DNA of 64,000 bases from Escherichia phage CLB_P2: sequence record OL770107, one strand, 5' to 3'. Positions 1,627 to 31,759 of the stretch are shown here, one piece after another. The notes under the pieces were generated by a model. It saw only the letters and a list, made by a program, of their open reading frames with translations. It did not search any database and had not been told where the DNA came from. The stretch's first letter is position 1, and every line of letters starts with the position of its first letter. The translations under genes were made by a program, and so were the position numbers.

Positions 1627-4600
1627 TTAGTTTAACTTAGCTTCAAGTTCTTTTACTTTAGCCGACAGAGTTTTAACTGCTTCAATTAATAGAGCAACTT
1701 GTGCCTGAGTAGAAACTGTCAGAACTTTATTACCTTTGATATCTTCAACTTCACGAATAGCTTCAGGTAATACTTCATTCAATTTCTGTGCAATAACACC
1801 TGCTTCAGTGTGAACAACCTCTCCACCAATATAATCAGCTTTATCATAGATTAAACCATCAAGCTGTTCAACCTTTTCAAGAGCGTTTTCAATTGGTTTG
1901 AAGTTTGATTTCAAACGAATATCAGAACGAATATAAACGTTTGGAGCATTTATATTCATATCTGAATAAGTGTCACCACCTTGGAATCGCATACGGCGAG
2001 AAGCATTAGTCCAAACTTCTAAAAGACCGTCACCAACTTGTCTAAAACCAGTATCGCTATCCCCAATTACAAGTGAGTTACCACCAAACCCGTTTATTGT
2101 GTTAATACCGAAGGCACTTGTTTGTGGTAGCAGTACTTTACCTGGACACTCTAAAGTACCGTCCATTACAAAGCGCCATCTTGCTTGTTGGCCATTAGCA
2201 TTGTCGCCACGTATACGAATAATACCATCACGCCATCCAGCTGTGGTACCAGAACCAACCCAACCAAACTCAAAGGTCTGACGATAACCTGCTGAACCAT
2301 AGTTACTCCACGCTCCGACAATAGGATAATAACTACCTGAATTGGATAAATCACCATGGTCTGCCATAAAGGTGATTTTAGGTTTCATTGCATCTGAGTT
2401 ATCACCCCAGCCTGCAGGTGAACGTGCAGAAGAAACTACACGAGAGGTAATATTACCAAGGTTTGTATTACCGCCTGTAACGTTTAATCCGCCACCAGTA
2501 ATATTCAGACCGTGGTTCATACCAACGCGACCATCAGCCATATTAATAGAGAAAGGTCTTAAGCCATTCCAATCACCATTAGCCGCATCGGGTTTTTCTG
2601 TCGTATTTTTATCTGTAGCTAAAATATAAAAACTTCCACCGTCGTTTCTAAGTAAAGCAGCATTAGAATCTAAATCATTACCTTTAGATTTAATACGCAT
2701 ACCTTTTTGGTTATTGGTAACATATTCACCACGAGTAACAATATCTGATTCACCAGCAGCAAACATTCCGTCAATATTGTTCAGCATTCTTACAGATTTA
2801 CCTACAATATGACCTTCAGGTAATGTTTCTACCAAAGGCTGGATGCCGCTATCCATACCTACTACGGTTACTTTACTATTGCTACTGCATGTATATTCTA
2901 CTACTAAAGAATTAGAATATCCACCCAAATAAACGTAAATATCATAGATATCTTCGCTTGTATTAACCGAAGCAATCTGGGAAATAGCTTCAGAAGTCCT
3001 ATTCCACAACGTAGCATTAAGGCCTTTAGGGTTATTATTACCAGTTCTAAGGATTATTTCAGCTATTGAAGCCTGACCATAACTTTTAAAATTAAATCCG
3101 GAACCACCAAATATTTTAAAAGATACCGTGCCTGTTGACTGCGGAATTTCTACAGTAGCAAATTTATACCAACCTGTAGTAGCACCACCCGACCATCCGC
3201 CCATATTAACTTTATGGTCTAATGTTGAATTCAGGTTTTTAAAGTTGTCTAAGGTAGAACTGCCTGTAATGTTACCATCTGTACCAATACGAATATCAGA
3301 ACCTATTTTAAGAGGCTTGGTTATATCAACAGTATCAGAGTTTAATGCAATACCATGTGAATAAGTATAGTTATGTAAACGAACAACGTTACCGCCGTCA
3401 CCAATACCAAGATACCATTTTGTAACGTCTGCTTTACGTCCTTGGATAAAGTTGGATGCTGCTTGAGATGAAGCATTCAAAACAATACCATCGGAATCCA
3501 TATTAACACGCAACCTACAGTCAGTTTGGACAAATTTACTTACGTTGTCGACTGTAAAAAGTGGACCACCTGTAGATTTATTCCCCATTATAACGGTACC
3601 ATTGGCTAAATTAATAGACAACGGACGGAGGTCGCTTATTCCACCATTTTCACCGGCGTTTTGAAGGGTAGGAATAAGATGGAATGAAGCAGAAGAACCC
3701 GTTTCTGAACGACGGAAAATCAAACCATATTCAGCGTTCCAAATTCTTAATGCGTCAGCAGTACCACCCATTTTAACTTGGCCACTAATTGAAGCGCCGC
3801 CTTGGACAAACAGGCCATTAGTCATGGTAACATTGCCACCAAAAGAACCGGTACCGGATGCACTTATATTTCCGAGACTAGAAAAATGACCTGTTTCAAC
3901 AGAGCCGTTGAACTTGAAGTTAATAGGGCCTACAGTTTCACCGGAAGCCGGATTAGTACGTTGGCCATAGAAATAATATCCTTGTGAATCTGATACTTCG
4001 AATACAGTTTCTCTATTACCGCCACCGGCGTTAAATGAGTTACCCCATGCTTTCATGGTAACGGTATTTTTGTTCTGGCCATTTCGGGTACCAGCGTCCC
4101 AGTTAATGGTTTTTGTACCATCAACACCGGTAGGAGCAGTTAATGCCAATGCAGAAGTATTATTGTTTGCGTTAAGAACTAGGCCGTTATTAACCATTAA
4201 ACGCTGTGTAGTAGAAACTGTGCCGTCTGCTCTAAGATTTAATTCGTTAACCCCGGTCTTAATATTTAAAATACCAGGTTCAATAATCATACCTTCTGCC
4301 ATAGAAATGGCTACACGACCTGTGCCACGGAAATAATGATAAAGTTTACCATTAGAATTATAACCCAAATGGGTTTGGCCATCCCCGGAGTTATTACCAT
4401 CTATTTCGGTTCTAATAGAAACCATAGAAGAATTCTGGCCCGGCAGAAGCCAAGTAAGCCCCTGGTCATTACTACGTCCAAATATGGTTTTGCTTGTACC
4501 GCGGAAACCATCAGTAGTAATAGAAGCAACAGAATAACCTCCACCCACCAAATCAAAATTACCTTGTTTAATATATTTTAAACCGGTCGCGGTATCACCT

Positions 4601-22118: not shown

Positions 22119-22532
22119 ATGAAAGAAATCGCAGATGAATTTAGCTTTATCAAGTACGTTACACTGGAGCTCCAAACAGATGCTACTATAGCCCCTATCA
22201 CGGTTCCAAATAAACAAAATGTCATATATGCTATAGCGGTTGATGATATACTAGTCTACATCGGGAAGACTAAAAATCTTCGTAAGCGCATCAACTACTA
22301 CCGAACCGCCATTAATCGTAAGGACCAAACGTCGGATTCGACCAAGTCCATTCTGATTCATGAAGCATTAATGGCTGGTAAAAAGGTAGAGTTCTATGCT
22401 AGACAGTGCTTTAATCTGTCGATGACTAACGAACTTGGAACTATGTCAGTTGAGACCATGTCTCTTGAAGAGCCAATGTTCATAAAGAAATTTAATCCAC
22501 CTTGGAATACCCAACATAGGATAAAGCAATGA
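22119..22532 (+). CDS. denA: endonuclease II (GIY-YIG family)
   Basis: About 137 aa from ATG at 22119 (MKEIADEFSFIKY); VYIGKTKNLRKRINYYR motif; strong resemblance to T4 EndoII. Confidence 0.8.
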   Translation: MKEIADEFSFIKYVTLELQTDATIAPITVPNKQNVIYAIAVDDILVYIGKTKNLRKRINYYRTAINRKDQTSDSTKSILIHEALMAGKKVEFYARQCFNLSMTNELGTMSVETMSLEEPMFIKKFNPPWNTQHRIKQ

Positions 22533-23677
22533 TTGAATTATATGATAACTTGATGACTTTGGTTAAAAACTCGACTAAATCTAAGTTCTTCTTTAAAGAC
22601 TTCCAGAGTGCGCTAGGAGTCAACTATCGCATCTTTAGTTATAACTATGCATCGTACAGTGATTGGTTGGAAGACGGCGCACTAGAGTGCCGAGGCATTA
22701 TGTTTGAAATGGACGAGAATGGTCCTGTACGTATCGCTGCTCGTCCTATGCAAAAGTTCTTTAATCTCGATGAAAACCCACTGACTATTGGTTTGGATTT
22801 ATCACAAGAAAATATTGATTTGGTTATGGCCAAGGAAGATGGTTCCTTGATTTCTACCTTCATGGATAGACAATATCTTTCTGTTAAATCTAAAGGCTCT
22901 ATCCATTCATCGATGGTACATGATTCTTTACGTTTCCTTCGTCTCCCTGAAAACGAGGCCTTCGCTGCTCGTTTAGAAGAAATTACTAAAGCAGGCTATA
23001 CATGTAACCTCGAGTATGTTTCGCCTACTAACCGTATTGTGCTGGCATACCAAGAAACAAACCTTATCTTACTGAACGTTCGTAATAACGAAACAGGTGA
23101 GTATATCCCTTACGCTGAACTGTTTAAAGATGGCGCTCTGCGTAAGCATTTGGTTAAAAGCTATGAACTCGCTGAAGGTGATTTTGTTGACAATATCCGT
23201 AAACAAGAGGGTATTGAAGGCTTTATCTTTGTACTTAAAGATGGCACGTTCTTTAAACTCAAAACCGCTTGGTATAGCGCACTGCATCATACCAAAGATT
23301 CCATTAACAATAACGAACGTTTGTTTGAAGTTGTAGTGGCTGGTGGAACCGATGACCTCCGAGGTTTGTTCAGTACTGATTCATTTGCTATTGAGAAAAT
23401 CAATGCATTTGAACGTATTCATTTAGACTACTTAGAACAGTCCTTGGCTTTGTTAGAAGCAGCATATTCTCAGCTCAAGGGTCGTGACCGTAAAGACTAC
23501 GCTGTTACCGGTCAGTTAATCCTCAAAGACTTCCCAGGGCTGTTCTCTATTCTTATGCAGGCGTACGTAGGCGGTATTAATTATGATACGGTCGTAGACC
23601 AGATTAACTCTGTGTTCTTGAAAAATCATAAGGCCCAAATCCCTGAAAAATATTTGAAAGAAATTGTGATAGAGTAG
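22529..23677 (+). CDS. rnlA: RNA ligase 1
   Basis: 382-aa ORF; N-terminal block [28 protein letters not shown] as in T4 Rnl1; KEDGSL adenylation lysine motif; ATGA overlap with denA. Confidence 0.85.
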   Translation: [382 protein letters not shown]

Positions 23678-23705
23678 TTTACATCTCCTCATGATGTGTT
23701 AGTAT
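23677..23705 (+). promoter_or_regulatory. early promoter cassette (PeSL-like)
   Basis: GTTTAC, 17 nt, TAGTAT; inverted repeat CTCCTCAT...ATGAGGAG spans promoter to RBS. Confidence 0.45.
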
Positions 23706-23735
23706 AGACTTACCAACTAATGAGGAGAAAACAAA

Positions 23736-24236
23736 ATGAATATGCAAATGATTACTAACGAAATGGTTGTTAAAGCTTTTGGTGACTCTACTGACGGTAT
23801 CCAAGTTTTTAAAGGTTCTCGTGCAGTAGGGTACCTAACCGATCTTCGTGTTACTTTAGCTAAAAATGCTAAAAAGAAAATTAAGCAAAAAGAATACTCT
23901 ACCCGTTATGCAGAAGAAAAGCGTGAAGCCATGCCTGAAGCTGTTAACTCTATGGTTGAGTTTCTCCAAAACAACCTTTCCAAGTATGATGCTGAGGTAT
24001 TCATTAATATCAGCCAACCTAATGTCAAAATCGCAGGAATCACTTTCTATTTGATTTGCGACCCATTAAGCGATAAGTTTAATCGCCTTGGCATTTCGAG
24101 TCCTTACCATACCGCTGAAGAATTGTGCGTGATGTTCGAAACGTATAAAATCCAGTGTGAAAACCCTAAAACGGTTCTTATCAACTCCCTGTCACGTGAT
24201 GACATCATCGAGATTATTACCAAATGTCTAAATTAA
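23736..24236 (+). CDS. alc: Alc-like host transcription inhibitor (positional call)
   Basis: 166-aa ORF (T4 Alc 167 aa) directly downstream of rnlA; identity rests on size and synteny only. Confidence 0.5.
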   Translation: MNMQMITNEMVVKAFGDSTDGIQVFKGSRAVGYLTDLRVTLAKNAKKKIKQKEYSTRYAEEKREAMPEAVNSMVEFLQNNLSKYDAEVFINISQPNVKIAGITFYLICDPLSDKFNRLGISSPYHTAEELCVMFETYKIQCENPKTVLINSLSRDDIIEIITKCLN

Positions 24237-24577
24237 GTATTTACCTTTTAGCTGGAGCCATTGTAGTAGGTGCTTACAGTCTTATTTCGTATCAATCAAG
24301 CCGTATTGATACATTAACTGAAGAACTGAAAACAACCCAGCAAACAGCTAAACAGAACGCCGAAGCTGTTGATGACCTTCGTGGTCAATATTCAGATATT
24401 GAATTCCGTACTACTGAAATGAATGCCAGACTGGATAAAATTAAGGTAGAAAATGAAAAGCTCCGTAAAGATTCGAAGAAGGCGCACGTGGTGGCAAGTA
24501 AGCCAGGATTGGTCGAAAAACAAATCAACAAGTCCTTCGATTCCTTTACAGAAGACTTCAGGAGCATCACAGAATGA
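24224..24577 (+). CDS. i-spanin (inner-membrane spanin subunit)
   Basis: 117 aa; N-terminal TM helix LSIYLLAGAIVVGAYSLI followed by coiled-coil-like charged region; immediately upstream of a lipoprotein ORF. Confidence 0.65.
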   Translation: MSKLSIYLLAGAIVVGAYSLISYQSSRIDTLTEELKTTQQTAKQNAEAVDDLRGQYSDIEFRTTEMNARLDKIKVENEKLRKDSKKAHVVASKPGLVEKQINKSFDSFTEDFRSITE

Positions 24578-24864
24578 TTAAATTGACTGCTGTAATGTTA
24601 TCTATTGGATTGCTAGTTGGATGTGCCCAGGATGTTCCTGTAGCGCCTAAACAACAACTCCACCCTTCATGGCCACAACCTATTGCCGAACATAATGTTA
24701 AGTGGCAGGTTAAGGTAATCGATGGTAAGGCTTGGGTCGGTATGCCGTTTGAAGACTCACAAGAACATCGTATTTGGTTGAATGACGTAAAAAGATATGT
24801 ACAAGACCAGAAATCTATGTTATGTTATTATCGTTCCGGGTTAAAAGAGGAGAAGTGCAAATGA
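24574..24864 (+). CDS. o-spanin (outer-membrane lipoprotein spanin subunit)
   Basis: 96 aa; signal peptide with lipobox LLVGC; ATGA overlap with the i-spanin gene. Confidence 0.65.
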   Translation: MIKLTAVMLSIGLLVGCAQDVPVAPKQQLHPSWPQPIAEHNVKWQVKVIDGKAWVGMPFEDSQEHRIWLNDVKRYVQDQKSMLCYYRSGLKEEKCK

Positions 24865-25031
24865 TCGAGGCTTGTGCTGACGGGTGGGATATCGTTCGAT
24901 TTGGTTTTGCATGCTTTTGTTTTGGAATCGTGTTCAGCATGTGTATGAACGGTATTTTTGGAAAGTAGTGTACAAACTCTTGGGAGCAGAGTATAATGCT
25001 CCTACGGATTATAAAAATTGAGGAAATGACT

Positions 25032-25489
25032 ATGAAAATATTATGGTATGTTGAGAACGCTAATAATATCATGAAGTGTAAAGACGAATTCTTCCAAAAT
25101 CTGGCCCGAATTGGTTCTTGCCGTAAAACACCTTTGGAAGGTAAAGCTCGATTCTTTATTTCAGAATGTAAAGACAAAGCTATTACAGAAGTTGAATACT
25201 ACGCCCCATGGAATGATTTCCCGAGCAGAGTGTTGAAATTATCCAAGCCTATTCCTTCTGATGTGTGGAATTCAATCTTAGATGTTACTGCATGCTATGA
25301 AGAAAACCAATCACTTCATGAAGAAAAAGAACGTATTCGCGAACTGGTAAAAAGTTTTGAATACGCGGCTAAACGCCATGGCCAAATGCAATCCGCAGTA
25401 ACCCTTGGCGATGTTCCTGAAAGTGTTGCTTATGAATCCGGTAAAATCCTTAAAACCTGCCGTGAAGAACTTTATAAGGAGCTCGGTGT

Positions 25490-25493
<4 letters not shown>
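25032..25493 (+). CDS. hypothetical protein
   Basis: About 153 aa from ATG at 25032 with GAGGA RBS 8 nt upstream; function unknown. Confidence 0.4.
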
Positions 25494-26714
<1,221 letters not shown>

Positions 26715-26715
<1 letters not shown>

Positions 26716-27596: not shown

Positions 27597-27598
27597 GT

Positions 27599-27637
27599 GT
27601 TTACAACACGGTAGGACTGTGGTATAGTAGTCCTACC
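27599..27637 (+). promoter_or_regulatory. early promoter cassette (PeSL-like) with hairpin
   Basis: GTTTAC, 18 nt, TATAGT; perfect 9-bp inverted repeat GGTAGGACT...AGTCCTACC encloses the -10. Confidence 0.5.
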
Positions 27638-27658
27638 GAAACAAATGAGGAAATCGAA

Positions 27659-28213
27659 ATGGGTAAGTTCTTTGAAGAGCGTAAGTTTTATAAGTTCATT
27701 AGCGAATACACTAAAAACAAATTCACTAATAACGGCTCTTATGGCCTCAATACAGCTTTTGCCAAGTATGTAGGTATGAACCCGTTTGAAGTTGAAATTG
27801 ATTACCATAATGGGCGTGAACGTGTAAGCCGAATTCGTGTATATGACGAGATGATGTTTGTCGACCCTAGCAAAATCACAGGTAATCCTGATGATGCAAA
27901 TGCTGTTCTTTTTAATTCAACAGGCCTTTTTGGCCATGAATTCGATTACTTTATTGAAGTGGTACGTCCACTGGCCTCGGTGAGTATTCCTGAAAATGGT
28001 GGACCTAAACCAGTAAAAGCCACTGCGGATTGGAAAGTGCTTATCGTTAAAAATGGTAAGATTGAAGTTCATTCTCGCCATAACACAAAGGAACAAGCCG
28101 ACCGTCAAGCCGAAGAGCTTTTGACCAGTTCGTTCCAACAAGTGTGTTATATTGTTAAAGGCGACGTTACCCAAGCTACCACTACCAAACAACTTAAGTT
28201 GGAGACCATCTAA
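27659..28213 (+). CDS. hypothetical protein
   Basis: About 184 aa from ATG at 27659 with GAGGA RBS. Confidence 0.45.
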   Translation: MGKFFEERKFYKFISEYTKNKFTNNGSYGLNTAFAKYVGMNPFEVEIDYHNGRERVSRIRVYDEMMFVDPSKITGNPDDANAVLFNSTGLFGHEFDYFIEVVRPLASVSIPENGGPKPVKATADWKVLIVKNGKIEVHSRHNTKEQADRQAEELLTSSFQQVCYIVKGDVTQATTTKQLKLETI

Positions 28214-30860: not shown

Positions 30861-30880
30861 TTCTAAATCTTTAAAAAAAG

Positions 30881-30909
30881 GTATACATCTCCGGTAGGCA
30901 TGATACTAT
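30881..30909 (+). promoter_or_regulatory. early promoter cassette (PeSL-like)
   Basis: GTATAC, 17 nt, TACTAT, followed by the 37-nt leader GTACCAAATAATACGAAAACAAACTGGAGAATAAAATG. Confidence 0.45.
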
Positions 30910-30950
30910 AGACATGTACCAAATAATACGAAAACAAACTGGAGAATAAA

Positions 30951-31319
30951 ATGAAAATCAATCTTAACTCATACATCAAAGGTAAAGACCACGACGGTTA
31001 CAAAGCCATTGAAACTAAAGAGATGCAATGGCGCTTGTACAAAGAACAATTTGAATTTGTAGGTTGTATGACTCCTGAAGGTCCTTCCGATGACTTCTCT
31101 TGGAAAATTTTGGTAACAAACTTTTTTACTGGCGATACCTACGAACTGAAAACTATCATAACCGGTAAGATTCGTTGTAAGACCTATGAAGATGAAGAAA
31201 CCGGTTATTCTGAAGATGTTACATGGTATCAAAATGGTCGTATCACTACAGATAACCTGATCGAAAAAATGAATGCCAAAGGTGAATTAAATTTAGATAA
31301 TTGGATTAAAGTTGCATAA
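30951..31319 (+). CDS. hypothetical protein
   Basis: 122-aa ORF behind cassette leader with GGAG RBS. Confidence 0.45.
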   Translation: MKINLNSYIKGKDHDGYKAIETKEMQWRLYKEQFEFVGCMTPEGPSDDFSWKILVTNFFTGDTYELKTIITGKIRCKTYEDEETGYSEDVTWYQNGRITTDNLIEKMNAKGELNLDNWIKVA

Positions 31320-31323
31320 AACG

Positions 31324-31352
31324 GTTTACTTTGGTACAGGTTGTGTTATTAT
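31324..31352 (+). promoter_or_regulatory. early promoter cassette (PeSL-like) with hairpin
   Basis: GTTTAC, 17 nt, TATTAT; inverted repeat GGTACAGGT...ACCTGTACC; same 37-nt leader as the cassette at 30881. Confidence 0.5.
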
Positions 31353-31393
31353 AGACCTGTACCAAATAATACGAAAACAAACTGGAGAATAAA

Positions 31394-31759
31394 ATGAACT
31401 ACATCAACTTCGAACGTAAATATGTTTCTAACGGTATCGCTGGTTCTTCTGAAGTTATTTGTCTGTGGAAACACAACAACGGCACAGTGTGTGAAATCGA
31501 ACAGTGCATGACTCCTAACTACGTTTATATGCGCTTTGAAAATGGTATCACAGTTTCAATCACTATGGAAGGTTCTACTTTTAAAATCGCTTTGGACGAT
31601 GATTTCCGTCAACGTGATTTAGGTACCCATCCTTGCTGGAACGGTTCTAATCGTAAGCTTCTGGTTAAAACCTGGATTCGTCACATCCTGAGCAACCGTG
31701 CTAAACCTGAACACCTGGAAGCAATCTTTGATGTAGTTCTGAATGAATTTGATATCTAA
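31394..31759 (+). CDS. hypothetical protein
   Basis: 121-aa ORF behind the identical leader. Confidence 0.45.
   Translation: MNYINFERKYVSNGIAGSSEVICLWKHNNGTVCEIEQCMTPNYVYMRFENGITVSITMEGSTFKIALDDDFRQRDLGTHPCWNGSNRKLLVKTWIRHILSNRAKPEHLEAIFDVVLNEFDI

Follow-up and report, generated by a model that had tools for sequence, protein, structure and literature searches.

The interval between the o-spanin gene pseT.2 and the next larger gene of Escherichia phage CLB_P2 (sequence record OL770107) was found to contain two adjacent, separable features: (i) a 35-codon micro-gene which, as judged from comparison with its relatives, is a genuine gene under purifying selection, with a product predicted to form a single transmembrane helix, and (ii) a promoter-early stem-loop (PeSL) located directly behind it, whose anatomy identifies it as an ordinary member of a class already published for T4-type phages. 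Taken as a whole, this explanation, including the roles proposed below for the two features, is in our opinion very probable. The case for the reality of both was built on the comparison with relatives; in the single sequence none of the features stands out from chance.

The analyzed stretch of DNA (the window) comprises 64,000 nucleotides. The phage is T4-like and belongs to the genus Dhakavirus; positions 24400-25500 are 99.2% identical to phage dhaeg. The features of the region are as follows.

22529-23677, plus strand: rnlA
23678-23705, plus strand: early promoter 5' of alc, TTTACA-16-TAGTAT with TG (consensus scan; TAGTTTACA directly after the rnlA stop codon)
23736-24236, plus strand: alc
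24224-24577, plus strand: pseT.3, i-spanin, 117 aa (PHROG 739, Rz-like spanin, E 1e-35; named pseT.3 in the JS98 annotation)
24574-24864, plus strand: pseT.2, o-spanin, 96 aa (PHROG 812, Rz-like spanin, E 1e-43; annotated in JS98 and dhaeg)
24847-24852, plus strand: Shine-Dalgarno (SD) sequence GAGGAG, 8 nt 5' of the micro-ORF ATG (read from the sequence)
24861-24968, plus strand: micro-ORF, 35 codons and TAG (24966-24968), predicted single-pass membrane micro-protein, PHROG 23289
between the micro-ORF and the 153-aa gene, plus strand: spacer of 63 nt
24966-25034, plus strand: PeSL of 69 nt, from the upstream stop codon (TAG 24966-24968) through the early promoter, stem-loop and SD to the ATG of the next gene (25032-25034)
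24969-24997, plus strand: sigma-70-type early promoter, -35 TGTACA (24969-24974), 17-nt spacer, -10 TATAAT (24992-24997), 10/12 matches to the consensus
24981-25004, plus strand: inverted repeat, 8-bp stem (24981-24988/24997-25004) with an 8-nt loop, enclosing most of the -10 hexamer (RNA fold)
25020-25023, plus strand: SD GAGG belonging to the 153-aa gene, whose ATG at 25032 follows after 8 nt (GAGGAA invariant in the alignment)
25032-25493, plus strand: 153-aa gene, PHROG 4482, function not assigned, one of three alternatives found behind the PeSL
25490-25810, plus strand: 106-aa gene
25807-26715, plus strand: pseT

The micro-ORF encodes the peptide MIEACADGWDIVRFGFACFCFGIVFSMCMNGIFGK, which contains 4 Cys, 6 Phe and 5 Gly residues. 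A first-pass annotation, made from the sequence alone, had described a Cys/Phe-rich hydrophobic peptide opened by an ATG that overlaps the o-spanin stop codon. The composition was borne out, the best 19-residue segment having a mean Kyte-Doolittle hydropathy of 1.9-2.5 in all 11 variants, and so was the overlap; the start had been placed one base off, the ATG occupying 24861-24863 and the TGA 24862-24864. This ATGA overlap (or one of 8 nt) with the o-spanin gene was present in every T4-like locus examined. The last codons of pseT.2 include the SD sequence of the micro-ORF, which is kept as GAGGAG, GAGGAA or GAGGGG in all T4-like relatives.

Two longer reading frames were rejected. The upstream part of a 48-aa ORF starting at ATG 24822 is out-of-frame o-spanin sequence closed by stop codons in relatives, and the reverse frames that carry a 120-aa antisense ORF (24815-25177) are broken in relatives. 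A terminator-like hairpin with a T-rich tail was also scored inside the micro-ORF (24881-24898); its stem is lost in relatives, e.g. in JS98 according to the codon alignment, and it is probably due to chance.

In total, 86 phage records matched the peptide over its full length at 63-100% identity (tblastn), and 31 loci (29 T4-like and 2 of Kuravirus), corresponding to 23 distinct DNA sequences, were read. The frame was intact in all of them (31/31), with 34 or 35 codons starting from the same ATG; every product ended in G-[IL]-F-G-K followed by TAG, and the only changes in length were single-codon (3 nt) indels. In phage fDHCT2 an in-frame stop codon directly precedes the ATG, which fixes the start of the micro-ORF. 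Variable sites were distributed over codon positions 1, 2 and 3 as 14/16/31, the pooled pN/pS was 0.33 and the median pairwise dN/dS was 0.23. The shifted forward frames gave pN/pS values of approx. 1.0-1.1 and contained 38-56 stops; for the antisense frame whose wobble position coincides with that of the micro-ORF the value was 0.46, but this frame is broken by stops in some relatives. Synonymous codons alternated at invariant residues, for example C5, G8, C20, G22, C28, G31, G34 and K35. PHROG 23289 was matched over the whole length of its 35-position profile (E 1.1e-22, residues 1-35 aligned with profile positions 1-35), and the Kuravirus copy also matched it (E 2.3e-14); members of this family such as dhaeg_36, MX01 ORF221 and WG01_227 occupy the same position after pseT.2, and the protein encoded in the window is a further member.

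These observations indicate that the micro-ORF is a genuine gene under purifying selection. The first-pass annotation had allowed either a translationally coupled membrane micro-protein or non-coding sequence, and had named loss of the frame in relatives as the finding that would count against the former; the frame is conserved throughout, and together with the wobble excess, the low pN/pS and the conserved ATG/stop overlap this favors its coding option. The opposite reading, in which the stretch is non-coding and was conserved as an RNA or DNA element (such as an untranslated 3' end of the spanin mRNA or part of the upstream region of the promoter), could draw on the shortness of the ORF, since an open frame of at least 35 codons after an ATG has a chance of approx. 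11% at this composition, on the lack of annotation in JS98, IME08, VR7 and other records, and on the terminator-like hairpin mentioned above. However, that hairpin is not kept, variable sites favor the wobble position, the pN/pS is 0.33 compared with approx. 1 in the shifted frames, and the other frames contain stops. Moreover, the micro-ORF is the least conserved segment of the region at the nucleotide level (mean pairwise identity of 76.8% in 24 T4-like loci vs 88.0% for the 3'-terminal 105 nt of pseT.2 and 94.9% for the PeSL), and its frame is nevertheless kept, while the homology with Kuravirus described below spans exactly the ATG to the TAG, with synonymous sites saturated. We therefore regard a non-coding origin of the conservation as highly improbable.

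The records of dhaeg, MX01, WG01, ABTNLS3, P479, fDHCT2 and UGJNEcP3 list the micro-ORF as a "hypothetical protein", a point missed by the first-pass annotation; it is absent from the annotations of JS98, IME08, VR7, VR20, VR25, SP18, Bp7 and AnYang. The JS98 RefSeq record NC_010105 (locus piece 1966-2590) contains both the micro-ORF and an intact 153-aa ORF (165 aa with the longest start) and annotates neither, leaving an unannotated gap of 625 nt. In Yersinia phage vB_YenM_P8 (locus 501-608) the 35-aa micro-ORF is labelled 'thioredoxin', a name unsupported by any of our searches.

With respect to expression, the early promoter at 23678-23705 is the likely source of the micro-ORF transcript. 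Neither MotA-box middle promoters nor TATAAATA late promoters were found on the plus strand between this promoter and the micro-ORF. Since the nearest promoter is early and none of these intervenes, the micro-gene is most likely expressed early, and would form the last cistron of a transcript comprising alc, the i-spanin gene, the o-spanin gene and the micro-ORF. In the rnlA-alc spacer (23685-23728) we found a hairpin of TCTCCTCAT and ATGAGGAGA (-17.4 kcal/mol) that surrounds the -10 hexamer of this early promoter. As the 3' arm of this hairpin is the alc SD sequence, read-through RNA could mask the alc SD, in contrast to RNA initiated at the promoter.

The micro-gene is accessory, exchangeable and cassette-like in its distribution. 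Outside the T4-like phages it was found in two Kuravirus podophages, 172-1 and NJ01 (77 kb), which encode MNEVCTGWDLIRFAAACFCFGI[VI]FSMCMHGIFGK, a peptide approx. 75-85% identical to the T4-like copies. The Kuravirus copy lies between two small genes, in a stretch left without annotation, and has its own GAGG SD; its similarity to the T4-like copies starts at the ATG and stops at the TAG. Compared with the copy in the window there are 19 synonymous differences at 18.7 synonymous sites (i.e. saturation) and a dN of 0.14, and the comparison with TH57 gives 6 nonsynonymous differences and 16 synonymous ones. Among the 88 Kuravirus records matching the flanks, the whole query was covered in only two, those of 172-1 and NJ01. 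An empty site with a single TTGAGGTTAATATG was present in the two other Kuravirus loci that we read (L034 and L035), and the filled site carries an SD-ATG motif at both sides of a 117-nt insert. This pattern strongly suggests that the gene has been passed between two phage families, the T4-like Straboviridae and the Kuravirus podophages, as a minimal cassette of approx. 117 nt, consisting of the ORF and an SD.

The motif flanking the insert, TTGAGGTTAA(T/CT)ATG, is duplicated in 172-1 (locus 940-1076) and occurs as one copy where the insert is missing (L034 and L035, 450-462). The Kuravirus cassette takes the resident SD and ATG and gives the downstream gene a new SD-ATG. All neighbors of the micro-gene in Kuravirus are small proteins without an assigned function, and lysis genes are not among them.

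PseT.1, a soluble protein of 74-75 aa, takes the slot after pseT.2 in T4 and in Tequatrovirus JK45, and likewise starts at an ATGA overlap. It is therefore the site that brings the coupling to the o-spanin gene, and the micro-gene is one of several occupants that alternate there. T4 PseT.1 (PHROG 2347) shares with the micro-ORF the slot, the ATGA overlap with the pseT.2 stop and the same SD, but has an unrelated sequence of twice the length that lacks the hydrophobic character; it is a positional replacement and not a homologue.

Searches for more distant relatives returned little else. When 1.84 billion representative proteins were searched exhaustively with HMMER, a single match was obtained, to a variant of 34 aa that lies in the same T4-like surroundings, and a homologue search with the 48-aa extended query gave one near-identical 35-aa protein. 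Scans of IMG/VR and of metagenomes recovered the same phages only, plus one metagenome contig with the same block, and scans of bacterial genomes recovered no homologue of the peptide; no wider family or bacterial homologue was thus visible across the protein, IMG/VR, metagenome and bacterial-genome searches. Profile searches with the peptide against Pfam, NCBIfam, PADLOC and PDB gave no match, and a full-text literature search with peptide fragments returned nothing relevant.

The micro-protein is predicted to form a single transmembrane helix long enough to cross a bilayer. AlphaFold modeled one helix (residues 3-33) with a pLDDT of 81 overall and above 90 in the core, and this model together with the hydropathy of the 19-residue segment agrees with the membrane location put forward in the first-pass annotation. 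Fourteen residues are invariant (M1, E3, C5, G8, F19, C20, F21, G22, I23, C28, G31, F33, G34 and K35). The net charge of the flanks in all variants is -1 to -3 on the N-side and 0 to +1 on the C-side, and this distribution, by analogy with short acidic-tailed peptides such as the Pf3 coat protein, suggests an N-out, C-in insertion into the inner membrane, although the charges behind this topology are few and R13 on the N-side argues weakly for the opposite one. The helix might then pack against a target in the inner membrane early in infection, and an early-expressed binder of such a target is our best guess for the function of the micro-protein. A more specific form of this proposal, in which the micro-protein is a dedicated early effector, shared across unrelated families of E. 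coli phages and binding a specific component of the host inner membrane, is tentative, and we put it forward as a possibility only. If it were true, the target could be a membrane-anchored defence system, the DNA-entry route of competing phages, or a redox or insertion factor, and the micro-protein would be among the smallest phage proteins for host takeover or anti-competition.

Two other roles have to be set against that of an inner-membrane binder. As a lysis accessory, the micro-protein would bind the transmembrane helix of the i-spanin, the holin or the antiholin and tune the timing of the spanin complex, which would explain the translational coupling to the o-spanin gene. In favor of this are the start/stop overlap seen at every T4-like locus that we examined and the predicted location in the same membrane as the i-spanin. 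However, soluble PseT.1 occupies the same coupled position in T4 and JK45, where coupling goes with the site; the Kuravirus copy lies among small ORFs without assigned function, with no recognizable lysis genes adjoining, and most T4-like genera lack the micro-gene, so that we consider a function in lysis improbable. The same low probability is assigned to a self-assembling pore or membrane-perturbing peptide, resembling type I toxins or viroporins and serving host shut-off or superinfection exclusion. Its size and hydrophobicity recall type I toxins, the five consecutive invariant residues F19-I23 span all faces of the helix, as expected for packing in an oligomer, and its sporadic, cassette-like spread is typical of competition genes; against this stand the lack of similarity to the toxin and defence families searched, the very small charge at both ends, and the harm that early depolarization of the membrane would presumably do to the phage's own replication.

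Assignment to two established classes was also considered and rejected. The micro-protein does not resemble a holin, as it has 35 aa compared with the usual length of at least 60, a lone Lys on the C-flank in place of a charged C-terminal domain, and no match to a holin family, and the Kuravirus copy lies outside any lysis cassette. Nor does it resemble a type I toxin gene: no toxin family was matched in the profile searches above, and the antisense strand is devoid of a conserved feature, its frames being broken in relatives.

The second feature, the PeSL, begins at the stop codon of the micro-gene. PeSLs are known from T4-type phages, in which they begin with the stop codon of the upstream gene, continue with a sigma-70-like promoter and end with the SD and ATG that serve the next gene, with a stem-loop placed mostly between the -35 and -10 hexamers or overlapping the -10; they acted as promoters and as terminators or attenuators in reporter constructs, and they serve as recombination joints that shuffle the flanking genes (Arbiol et al. 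2010, PMC2839356; Comeau et al. 2014, PMC4122927). They were described in RB49/phi1, PST/T4 and nt-1/KVP40, JS98 being named only for the g43 region.

The first-pass annotation had reported a promoter, GTACAA..17..TATAAT, with its -10 hexamer in the loop of a GGAGC/GCTCC repeat. The promoter-like site stands, with a different -35 hexamer, since it is TGTACA that gives a spacer of 17 nt and GTACAA gives 16; the repeat is present as well, with a stem reaching 8 bp and the -10 in or next to the loop. The reading as a promoter within a hairpin is supported, and the element fits the published PeSL class, which had not been recognized; it is not a curiosity. In the RNA the stem folds with approx. 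-13.7 kcal/mol (z-score -2.2). Promoter-like matches were not enriched (4 found vs 6.2 +/- 2.8 in shuffled sequences). The -35 hexamer reads TTTACA preceded by G in 10 of the 18 distinct relatives, which is the form of early -35 known from T4; the TGTACA of the window is poorer. The exact promoter/hairpin sequence has no second copy within the window and is single-copy. The 18 nt upstream (GGTATTTTTGGAAAGTAG) contain 67% A+T (genome, 60%) and are coding.

The PeSL block, the most conserved of the three segments compared above, precedes three unrelated gene starts (MKILWYVEN.., M[TS]LRDNSFV.. and MKELLENY..), and in Tequatrovirus JK45 it follows pseT.1 and not the micro-ORF, so that two different upstream genes and three different downstream genes are joined to it. 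Such a conserved block could double as a recombination joint for swapping neighboring genes. With respect to transcription, RNA initiated at the promoter would be expected to start at approx. 25004-25006 and would therefore lack the 5' arm of the hairpin, having only a short leader with the SD GAGG for the next gene. RNA reading through from upstream would thus be the only one to carry both arms, and could form the hairpin, which would then close the micro-ORF message at its 3' end and might serve as an attenuator or as a 3' stabilizer. The promoter and terminator activities of the element are predicted from its sequence. It is not a canonical intrinsic terminator, because the stem is followed directly by ACGGATTATAAAAATT, without a U-tract; the site was absent from the terminator scan.

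Several observations concern the DNA around the hairpin. Between it and the SD, at 25010-25017, lies TATAAAAA (TATAAAAT in many relatives), one mismatch away from the T4 late motif TATAAATA. This octamer is conserved in the Dhakavirus and Gaprivervirus copies and deleted in JK45, and could allow late expression of the downstream gene. In TH41 (locus 603-671, corresponding to window positions 24988-24997; record marked UNVERIFIED) the arms are unchanged and enclose the 10 nt ATTATACTCT, which in all other relatives stand in exactly reversed and complemented form (AGAGTATAAT); the inversion swaps TATAAT for TATACT at a shifted spacing. The T4 record (locus 1762-1835, minus strand) notes that the 14 nt of the loop in the early promoter Pe133295 had at first been published as their inverted complement. 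Loop inversion may be recurrent at such elements.

The -10-in-stem architecture was also found elsewhere in the window, with different stems, at 27598-27660, 30880-30953 and 31325-31395. The first of these, with GGTAGGACT ... AGTCCTACC (-18 kcal/mol), is the window's counterpart of T4 Pe133295. The other two share an identical PeSL 3' half, 41 nt long (TGTACCAAATAATACGAAAACAAACTGGAGAATAAAATGAA), at 30915-30955 and at 31358-31398, i.e. 443 nt apart; the two repeats bracket one ORF of 121 aa (30951-31316), a layout of a PeSL-flanked cassette proposed for the excision of mini-circles.

The role suggested for the hairpin in RNA has to be weighed against a reading in which the inverted repeat has no RNA function and is conserved either as a promoter only or as a hotspot of recombination or replication slippage at the DNA level. 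In 18 distinct sequences the stem was paired in 99.3% of cells, and compensatory changes on both sides were not found among them, so that covariation gives no proof of an RNA role; the shuffle control and the covariation score do not separate the stem from plain sequence conservation. The missing U-tract is also in line with a DNA-level role, as are the exact inversion of 10 nt between the arms in TH41, an event of DNA at an inverted repeat, and the recombination that was mapped inside a PeSL loop in RB49 (PMC2839356). On the other hand, the one-sided changes all preserve pairing (the pair 24982:25003 is G-U in 10 sequences, G-C in 7 and A-U in 1), the -10-in-stem design recurs with unrelated stems at 27598-27660, at 31325-31395 and in T4 Pe133295, and the stem-loop of a PeSL terminated transcription in a reporter (PMC2839356). 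We consider it rather unlikely that the repeat acts without an RNA function, and prefer the PeSL reading with a hairpin formed in read-through RNA.

The PeSL class was already known, and PHROG 23289 had been catalogued, although it is uncharacterized. What is added here is the purifying selection on the micro-gene, its transfer across families as a minimal cassette and the prediction of a membrane helix. A real gene has been left out of the reference annotations of JS98, IME08, VR7, VR20 and SP18, and a micro-gene shared across families is a clean candidate for functional work on small proteins. Current understanding is unchanged by either point, and their value lies in better annotation and a modest experimental lead.

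Small single-pass proteins that act through helix-helix binding include AcrZ, MgrB and SgrT of E. coli and Imm, Sp and Ac of T4, and the Pf3 coat protein is an example of N-out insertion. The micro-protein is comparable with these in its size class, its single hydrophobic helix and its acidic N-tail; its sequence resembles none of theirs, and has an unusually high content of Cys, Phe and Gly.

The element at 24966-25034 shares with the published PeSLs the sigma-70-like -35 and -10 hexamers, a stem-loop overlapping the -10 (among the commonest layouts), the SD and ATG at its 3' end, a stem made of a G-run and a C-run with a G-T pair, and a position in a plastic region with differing flanking genes. 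It differs from them in its shorter stem (8 bp) and in that the end of the coding micro-ORF stands where the published elements have their AT-rich upstream part. The T4 element Pe133295 (cd.3/cd.2) is built in the same way, with GTTTAC, GGTAGAG, a 14-nt loop containing the -10, CTCTACC, an SD and an ATG, and thus has the same -10-in-loop design; its stem sequence and locus differ from those of the hairpin at 24981-25004, to which it is analogous and not homologous. The Dhakavirus and Gaprivervirus copies provide a clear example of the PeSL model, in which the block is more conserved than its neighbors and is joined to different cassettes.
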